Below, piece after piece: positions 25,792 to 48,425 of a stretch of 64,000 bases of DNA (position 1 is the stretch's first letter; every line of letters starts with the position of its first letter). The position numbers and the translations under genes are program-made. Where the stretch lies: the NCBI GenBank assembly GCA_903839725.1, contig CAIMDG010000001.1, positions 235,315 to 299,314 on the forward strand, in the 5' to 3' direction. The stretch comes from an uncultured bacterium. Lineage in GTDB: Bacteria; Patescibacteriota; Minisyncoccia; Phycocordibacterales; PALSA-1337. A model generated the notes under the pieces. That model had not been told where the DNA came from. It saw nothing but the letters and a program-made list of their open reading frames with translations, and searched no databases.

Positions 25792-26115
25792 ATGAATCAA
25801 AAAGATGAAAAAATAAAAGAGATTATCCGTGAATTGGCAGCCACATATTTTTCGCGTGAATCAAATCGCCAATCACTCATCACTATTACCGATGTTGAAA
25901 TGCATAGTTGGGGTAGTAGAGCGGTGATACTCATGACGGTCCTACCTGAAGAAAAATCTCAGATCGCTCTTGAATTTGCACATCGTCAGCTCAATGACTT
26001 CCGTCAATACGTAAAAGATAATTCACGTCTCGGTAGAATCCCCTTCTTTGATGTTCAAATAGACATCGGCGAGAAGAATCGTCAAAAGATAGACGACTTA
26101 TCAAGAAATGTGTAG
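25792..26115 (+). CDS. rbfA: ribosome-binding factor A
   Basis: RbfA KH-like fold sequence. Position after infB is conserved synteny. Confidence 0.85.
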   Translation: MNQKDEKIKEIIRELAATYFSRESNRQSLITITDVEMHSWGSRAVILMTVLPEEKSQIALEFAHRQLNDFRQYVKDNSRLGRIPFFDVQIDIGEKNRQKIDDLSRNV

Positions 26116-26199
26116 TATAATCGTAAATATTAAAAATTAAATCTCAAATCTAGCCTCTTATATTTGAGATTTAAGATTTGATATTTGAGATTGCTCTAG

Positions 26200-26271
26200 G
26201 GCCACGTAGAAAAGTGGTAATTCGGAAGTCTGCAAAACTTCTATGCGCGAGTTCGATTCTCGCCGTGGCCT
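26200..26271 (+). tRNA. tRNA-Cys (GCA)
   Basis: Manual fold: acceptor ggccacg/cgtggcc, anticodon loop ctGCAaa, T-arm gcgag-ttcgatt-ctcgc. Confidence 0.8.
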
Positions 26272-26355
26272 CAAATCAGTAGAAAAAATTGGAATATAGA
26301 TTTATAAAAATCTGTATTTTTTAGTATCTGCAATTATTCATCTAACATAATATTA

Positions 26356-26877
26356 ATGCGAAAAAGAAGTTGGACAAAAGAAGATCTCGTAAAAGCGGTA
26401 ATAGAATCGAAGAGCGTGAGACAGACTATATCAAGGCTAAACCTTGTTGAAGCTGGTGGCAATTATAATCAAGTTAAGAAGTATATTAAATTATACAACT
26501 TAGATACATCACATTTTACTGGCTACACATGGAACAAAGGTATGTGTGGACGATATATGCCACTTATACCACTATCAAACATCTTAATAAGACATAGTGA
26601 ATTTCAAAGTTATAAACTTAAGAAACGTCTCTTCATCGAAAAAATCAAAACTCCCCAATGTGAAAACTGCGGTTGGGCAAAGAAATCAGAAGATGGTAGA
26701 ATCCCTCTTGAGCTTGACCATATCAATGGAGACAAGTACGATAATCGTATTGAGAACCTACGGGTTCTTTGTCCAAATTGTCATAGCTTACAACCTACAC
26801 ATCGAGGTAGAAATAAACACAAACGCCCGGGTGGTGAAATTGGTAAACACGTAACACTTAAAATGTTATCTTCGTAA
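26356..26877 (+). CDS. HNH endonuclease, homing-endonuclease-like freestanding type
   Basis: N-terminal SWTKEDLVKAV...GGNYNQVKKYI...DTSHF module and C-terminal HNH (LELDHINGDKYDNRIENLRVLCPNCH). The last ~53 nt of the ORF overlap tRNA-Leu. Confidence 0.8.
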   Translation: MRKRSWTKEDLVKAVIESKSVRQTISRLNLVEAGGNYNQVKKYIKLYNLDTSHFTGYTWNKGMCGRYMPLIPLSNILIRHSEFQSYKLKKRLFIEKIKTPQCENCGWAKKSEDGRIPLELDHINGDKYDNRIENLRVLCPNCHSLQPTHRGRNKHKRPGGEIGKHVTLKMLSS

Positions 26878-26908
26878 GGAGTTGTGGGTTCGATTCCCAC
26901 CCCGGGCA
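26825..26908 (+). tRNA. tRNA-Leu (TAA), type II with long variable arm
   Basis: Acceptor gcccggg/cccgggc, anticodon loop ctTAAaa, long variable arm, T-arm gtggg-ttcgatt-cccac. Confidence 0.8.
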
Positions 26909-26976
26909 CTCTGAATTTCATATATATTGTGAATATCTTTATAAACATTCCATTCTAAATTTGATATAATTTTTAT

Positions 26977-27213
26977 ATGAATAAAAAATCTTGTGAAAGT
27001 TGCTCTATGCCTTTTTCAAAAGATGTGGGCATGCGAGAGTCAGATCGATATTGTAGTCACTGTTTTAATCATGGCAAACTATGTTATGAAGGTAATGATT
27101 TGAAAGAGTTTCAAAGAGCATGTTACGAAAATATGGTCAAAGGAGGAATGAATACATGGAAAGCAAGATTATTTACTTTTCTGATTCGTTTTGCACCTCG
27201 TTGGAAGAAATAG
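26977..27213 (+). CDS. zinc-ribbon domain protein
   Basis: CESC ... CSHC pairs. 78 aa. Confidence 0.5.
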   Translation: MNKKSCESCSMPFSKDVGMRESDRYCSHCFNHGKLCYEGNDLKEFQRACYENMVKGGMNTWKARLFTFLIRFAPRWKK

Positions 27214-27651
27214 AAGAGGGTCAGGAGTTTCCTCCTGACCCAATCGACAGTTAAGTGGCCAATCCACTCATGTTTTTACGAGACTTTGTCCAGTTCTCAC
27301 CGGTTTTAGATGCAACTCATTTTCGATTACTGGTGTAACCGATCTCGAGGGGGTCATTCGGCTATTTTGGGTTGTCTGTCGGACAACACGTCTTATGGCC
27401 AACATAATTCTTCATAAATGACTACTGCCATAGTCATGTAATACGTCCAGAAGAATACTTGTGCCTGCGTCTTCCCCCGCCTGTTCCTGAGGGTTATCAT
27501 CTAACCCAAATCTAGATGTAATTATACACATAGCTACTATTTTTGCAATTACTTTTTAAGCGTCATATATGCATATACTCCTCAATTGACATTTCCTACA
27601 AAAGGAATAGATTTTAGGTAGCACACATGTGCTCATTGAAAAAGGAATCTT

Positions 27652-28215
27652 ATGTTTACACTCAAAGTCGGTGACTGGGTTATTCCCACAGCAGGACTCT
27701 TACCTATCGATTCGGAACAGCAACACAGGACGAAAGAACGGCGTAGTATCACTACGACGGAGCCGCTGCAGATCGAGTCAATTCCAGTCACGAAAAAAGA
27801 CGAAGAACAGTTAAAATTTCAGGGCATCAGAGGTCAGTTTTTGGCTTGCTTTTTCCAGCCGGTAAACAAGACTGCGATCACTATGCAGGGTAATGATCAA
27901 GGAAAACAAAATATCCTGTCACTTATCAAGGCGCATGGGGTGCAGAAAAAATCACCGACAATAGAAGTTGAGGTTGTGGTGAATGGCCGAACCTTTACAT
28001 TGTTAGGTTCGAAAGAACAAATAGTGGACATGGGCCTGACGTCGGTTGTATTGCTCTCCCCTGAAAGCACTCCAGATAATTTTATTTCTGCGACAACGGC
28101 CCCCAAGGAATTCGAGCTGGCGTTAGGTAAACTCGTCACTGGCGGCACTAAATTTTATACAGTGCTCCAGTCATCATGGGCTTTACCGGCGTTCATATGG
28201 GAGATTTGCCCATAA
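27652..28215 (+). CDS. hypothetical protein
   Basis: 187-aa ORF in a locally GC-elevated segment. No recognised domain. Confidence 0.4.
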   Translation: MFTLKVGDWVIPTAGLLPIDSEQQHRTKERRSITTTEPLQIESIPVTKKDEEQLKFQGIRGQFLACFFQPVNKTAITMQGNDQGKQNILSLIKAHGVQKKSPTIEVEVVVNGRTFTLLGSKEQIVDMGLTSVVLLSPESTPDNFISATTAPKEFELALGKLVTGGTKFYTVLQSSWALPAFIWEICP

Positions 28216-28394
28216 CGCCGAGGTCGTGATAGACTGCGTTTTCGACCAAATCCCTTTGTGATAAAACAGGACCATGGCATGAATCAGTTGGTAGTTGCAT
28301 AGAAGTAATGGCCTGAGAAACCATTACGTCACAAACAAGGTTTGGTAAGGAGTCCAGCGGGAGATTGATTTCCATCAATCTTCCGCTTTCTTAT

Positions 28395-28985
28395 TTATTT
28401 AAAGAAACTTTTTCGATGAATAGGAAGCTGTCCGTATTTTTTTATTGAAGCATAATGCCTTTTTGTTCCATACCCTTTATGTAGTTCAAAACCATATTCT
28501 GGATGTTTCTTACTAAGTGAATTCATTTTCCTATCGCGTAATACTTTTGCACAGATTGAAGCGAGTGCAATAACCATCTCTTTTTCATCTCCCTTAATAA
28601 TTGTCTTTTGGTTAATATATTCCACAGGTGCTTTGAGACCACCGTCGAGTAATACTTTTGCTTGAATAGGTCGAATTCCTAAACCATTCAATGATGTACA
28701 TAATGCTTTTTTTATCGCGTACGACAATCCTTTTACATCAATGATCTTTTCACTTTGAAATGTAACGTGAAAATCGACAAGGCCTACCCTTGTCGCTTCT
28801 TGAATAATCTTAAACCATTTCCCTCTTTGTTCTTCAGATAATTGTTTTGATTCCTTGACGCCACGAAACAATTTCTTCGCTTCAGGTTTCAAAAATACAA
28901 AAGCACCAACAGCAACTGGTCCTGCAATAGGGCCACGGCCAACTTCATCAATACCAATCGTATATCTAGGTTTATTCTGTAACAT
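28395..28985 (-). CDS. rnhB: ribonuclease HII
   Basis: GIDEVGRGPIAGPVAVGA catalytic motif. Confidence 0.9.
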   Translation of the reverse strand: MLQNKPRYTIGIDEVGRGPIAGPVAVGAFVFLKPEAKKLFRGVKESKQLSEEQRGKWFKIIQEATRVGLVDFHVTFQSEKIIDVKGLSYAIKKALCTSLNGLGIRPIQAKVLLDGGLKAPVEYINQKTIIKGDEKEMVIALASICAKVLRDRKMNSLSKKHPEYGFELHKGYGTKRHYASIKKYGQLPIHRKSFFK

Positions 28986-48125: not shown

Positions 48126-48425
48126 ACATGACTGTTGGTAACTCGACTTCGCAACCCCTCTAATCTAAGCTAAGGTACAGGACAGATTTTGATATTTCTG
48201 GTATTATTATTTTACAACTGAATAAGTGACCTAACCCCTAAATAACCCTTTGTTTTCTAGGATATGGTCGAAAAGCCGTCCAAAGTAAAGAACTCCTAAT
48301 CAGAGCTACTTTGGACGGTCACATCTCGAAAGAGGTGTGGGCACTCCCTGCGGGGTTTGTCGGCCTGGTTAGGAGCTTTTTGCTATCTAGTTCTCGGTCA
48401 TTATTAGTAAAACCGTCCAAATTTT

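Follow-up and report, generated by a model that had tools for sequence, protein, structure and literature searches.

Introduction

Knowledge of free-standing homing endonucleases comes mostly from phages, and the cases in which their genes reside in tRNA clusters are few, i.e., SegB of T4 and the F-Tfl enzymes of T5. The gene content of the tiny genomes of the Candidate Phyla Radiation (CPR), or Patescibacteria, is thought to be tightly pruned. The subject of this work is an HNH gene located between a tRNA-Cys(GCA) and a tRNA-Leu(UAA) gene on the chromosome of an uncultured member of the Patescibacteria, within a stretch of 64,000 nucleotides (nt) of contig CAIMDG010000001.1 that was analyzed as a whole and is hereafter referred to as the window (positions given without a locus name are window positions; the loci and contigs compared are designated by L numbers). 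The evidence reported below makes it probable that it is a free-standing homing endonuclease gene (HEG) of a family living at tRNA-Leu(UAA).

The closest described system is the T4 SegB endonuclease, whose free-standing HEG lies between tRNA genes and which recognizes a conserved element of tRNA genes (PMC2330249). It has been proposed that maturation of the downstream tRNA cuts the segB mRNA between its last codon and its stop codon, and the removal of the stop codon through tRNA processing has likewise been proposed for F-TflI/II/IV of T5 (PMC2330249). The element of the window resembles segB in being a HEG wedged among tRNA genes, with an open reading frame (ORF) set hard against the downstream tRNA; segB is co-transcribed, and its homing takes the flanking tRNA genes along. 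The differences are that SegB is a GIY-YIG rather than an HNH enzyme, that it belongs to a phage genome, that its homing has been shown in mixed infections, and that it cuts many different tRNA genes, whereas the family described here resides in bacterial chromosomes, is associated with a single tRNA species and is known from sequence.

A second group of described systems is represented by the HEGs encoded by group I introns, HNH types included, in the tRNA genes of Patescibacteria and other bacteria, with an HNH HEG found in the tRNA-Leu(UAA) intron of Bacteroidota (PMC13011429); free-standing HNH genes located by tRNA-Leu go unmentioned in that paper. Unlike the tRNA genes hosting these introns, the tRNA-Leu gene of the window is intact and has no intron.

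Results

The HNH Gene of the Window Runs into tRNA-Leu(UAA)

The original prediction had placed an HNH homing endonuclease gene between tRNA-Cys and tRNA-Leu and had the ORF overlap the latter by about 53 nt; both statements proved correct. The two tRNA genes were recognized by ARAGORN, and covariance scoring gave 65.0 and 64.8 bits against an Rfam gathering score of 29 bits. The HNH cassette occupies the short spacer between them, hard against the 5' end of tRNA-Leu (coordinates of all the features are in Table 1). The stop codon of the ORF (TAA, 26875-26877) falls within the variable arm of tRNA-Leu, both genes being on the same strand, and the tail of the protein, PGGEIGKHVTLKMLSS, is the translation of the acceptor, D and anticodon arms. 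Since the same 173-amino-acid (aa) ORF is found in another assembly (P0001) at 99% identity and in contig L179 at 98%, the overlap is not the product of a sequencing error.

The encoded protein matches, at residues 102-144, the Pfam families HNH_3 (32.4 bits, cut-off 24.8) and HNH (26.4 bits, cut-off 21.4). The profile phrog_10822 ('HNH endonuclease') aligns to residues 1-159 (profile positions 3-160 of 245, E=1.5e-45), in agreement with the phage-type N-terminal module attributed to the gene by the original prediction. The predicted layout comprises a three-helix DNA-binding N-terminal module (approximately residues 8-46), a linker, and a zinc-ribbon HNH nuclease (approximately residues 100-150), whose residues C102, C105, H122, N124, N130, N134, C139, C142 and H143, which include the CxxC...CxxC zinc site and the catalytic His and Asn, are invariant across an alignment of 30 sequences (A1). 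In the 30-sequence alignment the conserved protein closes at ...CPNCHSLKPTHRGRNKKKR; in the window the conserved core stops at about residue 156 (nt 26823), residues 157-173 being translated tRNA. The AlphaFold2 model (mean predicted local distance difference test, pLDDT, 77.5) contains a beta-beta-alpha nuclease (strands 119-122 and 135-138, helix 140-144) and a flexible linker; since pLDDT is below 50 in residues 153-173, the tRNA-encoded tail is predicted to be disordered. The closest fold matches in the PDB, by sequence and fold searches, were the HNH domains of McrA and Gme, with weak scores; as only these generic domains were matched, no particular homing endonuclease structure can be named.

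The ratio of nonsynonymous to synonymous substitution rates (dN/dS) between the window and L179 is 0.26, on few changes. Across the family it ranges from 0.04 to 0.13 in pairs with far-diverged synonymous sites (dS up to 1.8), a pattern indicating that the gene is kept under strong purifying selection and is functional as a gene. No group I or group II intron was detected by Rfam, either at the gathering threshold or at E<=1, and the tRNA-Leu gene is contiguous and uninterrupted. The description of the gene as a freestanding HNH homing endonuclease gene of phage type is borne out by the full-length PHROG match, by the phage homologues located in tRNA clusters (see below), and by the absence of an intron or intein context.

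The neighbors of the cassette are bacterial housekeeping genes, i.e., infB (coding for a short IF2), rbfA, rnhB (RNase HII) and dnaE. The window was assigned to the CPR/Patescibacteria on the basis of these neighbors, of the names carried by the homologues, and of a LOOT RNA (Rfam RF03000) at 48228-48357, which scores 68.8 bits against a gathering score of 46.4.

A Family Locked to tRNA-Leu(UAA)

The protein search retrieved 4911 homologous protein clusters, typically 60-76% identical, and at least 570 loci encoding a relative were found in species-representative CPR/Patescibacteria genomes (one genome per species). The locus context was counted in the best 80 of these loci. In 79 of them a tRNA-Leu(UAA) gene lies directly downstream on the same strand, the exception being L077, whose contig ends there; in L048, where Ns mask the tRNA, it can be detected solely from the ORF tail. 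The distance between the conserved HRGxN motif and tRNA-Leu is mostly 2-34 nt. The usual gene order is infB, rbfA, tRNA-Cys, HNH, tRNA-Leu(UAA), with IF2 detectable at 50/80 loci, and HNH and tRNA-Leu remain paired where the surroundings differ or are inverted (e.g., L001, L004, L028, L290 and L292). As the pair persists when the upstream context changes, the partner of the HNH gene is tRNA-Leu(UAA) and not tRNA-Cys. No conserved partner genes were found beside HNH in the loci compared.

The overlap was surveyed in 120 family members with an adjacent tRNA. The ORF ends 1-128 nt inside the tRNA in 59 of them, in all three frames, so that the tails are tRNA-Leu read as 'PGGEIGKHATLKML', 'ARVVKLVNT'/'ARVA', or 'GQW'/'PRW'; in the other 61 the stop codon precedes the tRNA, 56 times within 12 nt. 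The commonest overlap is 47 nt (15 cases), and the 53 nt of the window were observed 4 times. This census indicates that the overlap is a family-wide architecture, neither a one-off nor an error. The room in the site is so scarce that half of the members lack a stop codon of their own and terminate within the tRNA.

Occupied and Empty Sites

A sample unbiased with respect to HNH was obtained by scanning metagenome contigs for the CPR-type tRNA-Leu(UAA) anticodon arm. The evaluable sites included 39 full HNH copies, 4 partial copies and 65 empty sites, corresponding to an occupancy of about 40%, with about 60% of the sites lacking the gene. In most empty sites, tRNA-Cys(GCA) lies 0-98 nt 5' of tRNA-Leu. 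One of the partial copies, L156, is a relic of 58 aa with an internal deletion; as to the others, L125 is a divergent full-length member, and two end at contig edges. Occupied and empty sites are intermixed in the IF2 tree. Comparing the tRNA-Leu sequences of the 39 occupied and 65 empty sites, no position was found to differ significantly, and no candidate immunity polymorphism emerged.

The closest relatives of the window (L285-L289, retrieved by RbfA and compared by IF2) have IF2 proteins 87, 80, 70, 67 and 66% identical to that of the window. All five possess tRNA-Cys and tRNA-Leu, separated by 46, 203, 45, 165 and 70 nt, respectively, and in all five the HNH gene is absent, as are the zinc-ribbon gene and the 187-aa ORF located downstream in the window. 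The nearest HNH proteins (74-76% identical) are instead encoded by genomes whose IF2 is just 60-65% identical to that of the window. Contig L094, tried as a near empty relative, was dropped for its RbfA alignment of just 23 aa, and L285-L289 were used in its place.

The spacer between tRNA-Cys and tRNA-Leu(UAA) may host other sequences. The HNH-less CPR contig L112 carries, at 481-1131 on the minus strand and inside a spacer of 666 nt, a gene for a 217-aa LAGLIDADG endonuclease matching Pfam LAGLIDADG_3 (E=3.8e-13); an unrelated family of homing endonucleases therefore exploits the same landing site. Two contigs, L109 and L124, share an identical spacer of 885 nt (GC 0.51) without a long ORF, and a search of the L109 spacer against Rfam returned nothing at the gathering threshold. 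A structured element of about 150-200 nt, absent from the window, was also observed (L286:3416-3618, L287:3415-3579, L179 approximately 1425-1575). Its copies have in common the blocks ATCGAAAAGG, GGAGCGGA, CCTGTAC and GCCTGTAAGGCGAGATTCCC, have no Rfam match, and show a compensatory change in the closing helix (GCGAGAATC/GATTCTCGC vs. GCGGGGATC/GATTCCCGC). The element sits in the tRNA-Cys/tRNA-Leu spacer of L286 and L287, which are HNH-less, but 3' of tRNA-Leu in L179, where it is flanked by both halves of the tRNA-Leu acceptor stem.

Apparently Recent Transfer of the Cassette

Contig L179 belongs to a related strain, whose infB 3' end and rbfA are 90.9% and 90.3% identical to those of the window at the nucleotide level, and the region of the 187-aa ORF is 85% identical. 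The block going from tRNA-Cys through tRNA-Leu (26197-26909), in turn, is 98.9% identical, and all its 8 differences fall outside the tRNAs, in 552 non-tRNA bases (26273-26824); compared with 31 differences in 321 positions of rbfA, the excess of similarity is highly significant (Fisher p=4e-8). Directly beyond both tRNAs, the two sequences cannot be aligned. A similar, weaker pattern was observed between L070 and L165 (96.0% vs. 91.6%). These comparisons indicate that a block bounded by both tRNAs has been exchanged between lineages.

The two tRNAs of the window have different affinities. Its tRNA-Cys is identical in 73/73 positions to that of L285, the closest HNH-less relative, and its tRNA-Leu matches that of L285 in 63/85 aligned positions. 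The identity among the tRNA-Leu genes of L285, L287 and L288 is 0.92-0.94, and the sequences nearest to the tRNA-Leu of the window are HNH-linked, with L004 at 0.87. Being atypical for its clade and closest to HNH-linked sequences, the tRNA-Leu gene seems to have travelled with the cassette, and co-conversion of the two in this genome is probable. The tRNA-Cys gene is the upstream neighbor of HNH at most occupied sites and directly precedes tRNA-Leu at most empty ones, and it is likely to act as the left homology arm for the transfer.

On the whole, this genome appears to have gained its HNH copy recently, as judged from its presence and absence among close relatives and from the identity of the block shared with L179. 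The low GC content of the cassette (0.33, vs. 0.41 for the genome) points in the same direction. The lateral acquisition suggested by the original prediction stood up to the comparison, in that the HNH gene is not conserved in all relatives and that no earlier stop codon or error separates the ORF from the tRNA. Over the whole family, HNH and IF2 distances are weakly correlated (Pearson 0.23, Mantel p=0.001), HNH pairwise identity reaching a plateau at about 0.62, and discordant close pairs exist, with an IF2 identity of 0.86 and an HNH identity of 0.69-0.75.

Relatives in Phage Genomes

In viral contigs, 483 relatives were found, with 40-53% identity, vs. the 60-76% observed inside the CPR clade. 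Considering the best 80 of them, tRNA-Leu(UAA) lies within 150 nt of the gene in 56 loci. It is upstream of the gene on the same strand, at 13-87 nt (mostly 44-65 nt), in 41/80, and directly downstream or overlapping, in the CPR-like manner, in 9/80; the CPR-like overlap is seen in viral contigs L201, L220-L224, L237, L254, L256 and L274. The viral proteins of phrog_10822 share with the window protein the two-module architecture over residues 1-159, but most of the viral tRNAs are located upstream of the gene, whereas the tRNA-Leu of the window is downstream.

Further relatives are found in individual phages, including homologues in the tRNA clusters of T5-like and T4-like phages. In the T5-like Salmonella phage Kenya-K16, a 'homing endonuclease' gene lies between tRNA-Ala and tRNA-Leu(UAG), overlapping the latter by 7 nt, and its product aligns to residues 6-153 of the window protein with 37% identity. 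The HNH gene of the Erwinia phage Cronus is preceded by tRNA-Leu(UAG) and followed by tRNA-Tyr, each 2-3 nt away, and in the cyanophage S-CRM01 an HNH gene follows a tRNA-Leu. The T5 protein HegA is 48% identical across the HNH half, and in T5 itself (L284, NC_005859 24000-40000) hegC overlaps tRNA-Ser(GGA) by 14 nt and hegD overlaps a pseudo-tRNA-Gln. The T5-like HNH genes (F-TflI/II/IV, hegA-hegD, Kenya-K16) resemble that of the window in the HNH fold, in the location in a tRNA region and in the overlap with the downstream tRNA; they differ in being phage genes, located by tRNA-Leu(UAG) or other tRNAs, whose products are less than 50% identical to the window protein. In the same region of T5, the hypothetical gene T5.069 (172 aa), between tRNA-Cys and tRNA-Asn, overlaps tRNA-Asn by 24 nt. 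The overlap of an ORF with a tRNA seems to be general for genes inserted in tRNA clusters. From this comparison, the gene of the window would work like the HEGs of phage tRNA clusters, of which it would represent a chromosomal variant, its neighbors being housekeeping genes.

Organization of the Region Upstream of the HNH Gene

The base frequencies 5' of 70 start codons of the family revealed a conserved arrangement, with T at -12 (0.64), A at -11 (0.79) and T at -7 (0.73), TG at -15/-14, and TT at -35/-34. The resulting box corresponds to an extended -10 element, TGnTATAAT, ending 6-7 nt ahead of the ATG, and 28 loci have a -10-like hexamer with its first base at -12. This implies, at the level of the family, that the cassette has its own promoter and a leaderless mRNA. 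In the window, a scan of the spacer from tRNA-Cys to the ATG with a consensus promoter found nothing, and a weak -10-like sequence stands at the place of the family box (Table 1); the promoter is therefore proposed on the basis of the family and not of the window copy. A promoter-like sequence TAAACA-17-TATAAT, preceded by TG (26942-26976), ends 6 nt ahead of the ATG of the zinc-ribbon gene at 26977.

In many loci, a partial copy of tRNA-Leu, extending from position 1 to approximately 26-46, is present upstream of the HNH gene, scoring z>3 vs. shuffled sequences in 20/117 loci; it is best preserved in L106 (24/26 positions) and well preserved also in L087, L195, L030 and L002. The fragment stands where the tRNA occurs in an empty site and decays past positions 26-46 or so. 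The cassette, with the fragment on one side and the intact tRNA-Leu on the other, thus lies between directly repeated copies of the tRNA's 5' part. This can be read as the insertion of the element into the tRNA gene, accompanied by a replacement 5' part brought by the element itself, which would account for the ORF running into the tRNA. An origin of the cassette from the group I intron of tRNA-Leu(UAA) was considered and rejected, the fragments ending variably (approximately 26 to 46) and not at the intron site, and no ribozyme being present.

A dyad of the form GG[ACT]ANAC...GTNT[AGT]CC, with a spacing of 30-32 nt, was found in 45/119 loci, vs. 0.085 expected by shuffling. It is composed of the D-arm segment of the fragment (GGTAnAC) and of an inverted copy of it (GTnTACC), which bracket the -35 region. 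The dyad could be either a protein operator or a hairpin, and the covariation of its arms outside the fixed motif, which is modest (positions 4, 7 and 8), does not decide between them. In the decayed fragments of L157 and L084, the old anticodon loop ACTTAAAATGT is now AGTATAATGT, a -10-like box, which hints that promoter elements of the cassette may have evolved out of tRNA remnants.

The upstream region of the window itself is degenerate, with AAATTGG plus a 13-bp hairpin in place of the family dyad. The fold of 26273-26355 has a free energy of -15.1 kcal/mol (z=-3.4). Between rbfA and tRNA-Cys lies a second, larger hairpin (-28.4 kcal/mol, z=-6.6); it has no other copy in the window and delimits the exchanged block on the left. 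As L179 holds only about 15 nt at its place, this hairpin is probably outside the cassette; it may correspond to a terminator or to a small palindromic insertion.

Table 1. Features of the window at and around the HNH cassette.
Feature	Position	Strand	Basis
AT-rich near-perfect hairpin, 87 nt, 34-nt arms (I1)	26113-26199	+	between rbfA stop and tRNA-Cys
tRNA-Cys(GCA)	26200-26272	+	ARAGORN; Rfam tRNA 65.0 bits
Terminator-like 13-bp hairpin GGAAUAUAGAUUU / AAAUCUGUAUUUU plus U-run	26291-26327	+	RNA fold
Weak -10-like CATAAT, ending 4 nt ahead of ATG	26346-26351	+	position vs. family box
HNH homing endonuclease ORF, 173 aa (putative)	26356-26877	+	Pfam HNH_3/HNH, phrog_10822
Segment common to HNH ORF and tRNA-Leu, 53 nt	26825-26877	+	sequence
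tRNA-Leu(UAA)	26825-26909	+	ARAGORN; Rfam tRNA 64.8 bits
Zinc-ribbon gene, 78 aa	26977-27213	+	Pfam Zn_ribbon_2, E=4.3e-8
Hypothetical two-domain protein gene, 187 aa	27652-28215	+	68 homologues, E<=1e-3

The Region Downstream of tRNA-Leu

The 1.2 kb located downstream (27214-28390) had been described in the original prediction as non-coding or hypothetical, with a locally elevated GC content. Neither point was fully upheld: the rise is marginal only (0.41 for the non-coding DNA and 0.46 for the ORF, vs. 0.408 for the window and 0.43 for rnhB-dnaE), and the region includes a real gene, coding for the 187-aa protein. The HNH cassette (GC 0.33) and the region of the zinc-ribbon gene (0.30) are AT-richer than the genome (approximately 0.41). 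The 187-aa protein has one full-length homologue (56% identity), many proteins of about 105 aa matching its residues 85-187, and some of about 75 aa matching residues 3-74, and it looks like a fusion of two domains that are separate elsewhere; no match was found in Pfam, PHROG or NCBIfam. Rfam searches at E<=1 on 26100-28500, including 27214-27651, returned the two tRNAs and noise, with no other non-coding RNA.

The zinc-ribbon gene is absent from L179 and is not part of the HNH cassette. Despite the 98.9% identity of the cassette, the stretch between tRNA-Leu and the 187-aa ORF (26910-27650, compared with L179:1630-1708) is wholly unlike that of L179, which harbors there a tRNA-Pro(CGG) gene and the structured element, the window having the zinc-ribbon gene and about 440 nt of non-coding DNA. 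Between tRNA-Leu and rnhB, L289 carries a toxin-antitoxin pair, an HIT protein and a sigma factor, L285 carries two unknown ORFs, and in L287 rnhB comes directly after tRNA-Leu. These comparisons indicate a separate variation hotspot 3' of tRNA-Leu.

Discussion

If the HNH gene of the window is a free-standing HEG, the following scheme might be proposed. The DNA recognized by the nuclease would be that of the tRNA-Leu(UAA) gene, possibly its D-arm region, with the N-terminal helical module probably making the contact, and the cassette-free alleles would be nicked or cut upon foreign DNA meeting the chromosome. Repair would then copy the cassette, the conserved tRNA sequences serving as homology arms, with tRNA-Cys or the decayed 5' fragment of tRNA-Leu on the left and tRNA-Leu on the right. 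Typical members would use their own extended -10 promoter to produce a leaderless transcript reading on into tRNA-Leu, from which RNase P, acting at the 5' end of the tRNA, would remove the 3' end of the mRNA, so that the overlapping members would be left without a stop codon. Such an mRNA would keep the nuclease at a low level, as proposed for T4 segB and T5 F-Tfl, and the 17 C-terminal residues encoded by the tRNA would be a functionless by-product. An analogy for this cut is the 'tRNA punctuation' of mitochondria, where the excision of tRNAs sets the ends of mRNAs without complete stop codons. Likewise, the autorepression of I-TevI, exerted by binding to an operator that is similar to its homing site and overlaps the promoter of its own gene, offers an analogy for the D-arm-like dyad bracketing the -35 region.

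A more extended scheme can be put forward tentatively. The resident tRNA-Leu(UAA) would have received a 5' part brought by the cassette in place of its own, which would survive upstream as a fragment; the tRNA would be transcribed from the leaderless promoter of the cassette, rendering the host dependent on the element for its expression; the D-arm-derived dyad, i.e., the sequence that the DNA-binding module would recognize in the target, would be used for self-regulation; and RNase P would decide between tRNA and nuclease. Taken jointly, these steps are rather unlikely to be all correct.

Some points weigh against the interpretation of the gene as an active homing element. Target recognition, cleavage or nicking and homing are inferred for all members from sequence data, and the activity of CPR promoters, RNase P processing and transfer-messenger RNA (tmRNA) rescue at the locus are inferred as well. 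Self-immunity finds no explanation in tRNA-Leu, which is alike in occupied and empty sites; the element may escape its own enzyme if this is a nickase (and hence tolerated), if the recognition site lies across the insertion junction, or if expression is low. Much of the history of the family looks vertical, with a common infB-rbfA-tRNA-Cys synteny and the weak correlation between HNH and IF2 distances; in some close pairs the divergence of the gene keeps pace with that of the flanks, and the HNH plateau at about 62% can be accounted for by saturation under constraint, transfer not being needed. The expression of the window copy is uncertain, its promoter and dyad being degenerate and a terminator-like hairpin lying 5' of the gene. 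Finally, as the same arrangement precedes the zinc-ribbon gene, the -10 box just before the ATG may be a habit of the genome rather than a feature of the cassette.

The serious rival is a domesticated host function, in which a once-mobile HNH gene now serves the cell, e.g., by regulating or guarding the tRNA-Leu(UAA) locus through a DNA-binding protein or by providing a defence nuclease, and is inherited vertically and often lost. The very strong purifying selection with saturated synonymous sites, the conserved upstream promoter and dyad, the finding of approximately one relic among about 44 occupied sites, a widespread conserved synteny pointing to long vertical residence, and HNH and IF2 identities that track each other in some close pairs are all compatible with it. 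A weak resemblance to the HNH domain of ZorE of the Zorya system was also found in NCBIfam, but its score is 32.8 bits against a cut-off of 600. A function useful to the host is, on the other hand, difficult to reconcile with a gene missing from about 60% of the sampled sites and from all five closest relatives, and with a cassette far more alike than its flanks between the window and L179. No conserved partner genes stand alongside, the nearest relatives outside the CPR are phage genes in tRNA clusters, and the same spacer hosts in L112 a LAGLIDADG homing endonuclease gene. On this evidence, domestication is considered improbable. The presence of phage relatives beside the same tRNA, of one relic and of a competing LAGLIDADG occupant of the site argues instead for a mobile element.

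The HNH gene could also be the cargo of an integrase-type island or prophage remnant inserted at tRNA-Leu, as might be suggested by the region between tRNA-Leu and rnhB, which differs in every close relative, and by the zinc-ribbon gene and the 187-aa ORF, unique to the lineage of the window. Yet islands integrate at the 3' end of tRNA genes, and the HNH gene is on the 5' side; 26000-28400 contains neither an integrase gene nor a direct repeat of the tRNA 3' end, the sole repeat being an imperfect 12-nt match in the variable arm (D15) at chance level. Moreover, the DNA that follows the HNH/tRNA-Leu pair differs completely at the other loci, and the block in common with L179 does not extend past tRNA-Leu, making an island very improbable. 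An overlap of artefactual origin, whether from a sequencing or assembly error that lost the true stop codon or from the decay of the ORF into a pseudogene, might be imagined from the tail past residue 156, which is unconserved as a protein and predicted to be disordered, and from the degenerate promoter region of the window. The recurrence of the 173-aa ORF in independent assemblies, the tRNA overlap in 59/120 members, the catalytic residues, all intact, and the dN/dS of 0.26 with respect to L179, albeit on few changes, make this hardly conceivable. The interpretation as a free-standing homing endonuclease gene is therefore preferred.

Conclusions

The presence of HEGs in tRNA clusters and the loss of stop codons to tRNA processing are already known from T4 and T5. 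A full-text literature search found no description of the CPR HNH family reported here. A chromosomal, phylum-wide CPR family fixed on tRNA-Leu(UAA) appears to be undescribed in the searchable literature, and so do the tie of the family to phage genes by the same tRNA, the flanking 5' fragment of the tRNA and the D-arm dyad. One HEG family is found across hundreds of Patescibacteria species at one tRNA gene, with relatives beside the same gene in phages. It also accounts for a recurrent oddity of annotation, i.e., ORFs entering tRNA-Leu, which are liable to be truncated, dropped or flagged by gene callers.

Some predictions follow, namely that the target lies within the tRNA-Leu(UAA) gene, that the mRNA is leaderless and loses its stop codon on tRNA processing, and that the operator is of D-arm origin; a compact nuclease specific for a tRNA gene might also be of practical use. 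The family offers a marker of DNA exchange among Patescibacteria and may also be a vehicle for it. If the replacement of the tRNA 5' part and the dependence of the host were true, homing elements would have a novel means of becoming entrenched in streamlined genomes, and phages and CPR bacteria would have a route, spanning the phylum, by which to exchange DNA at one tRNA gene.

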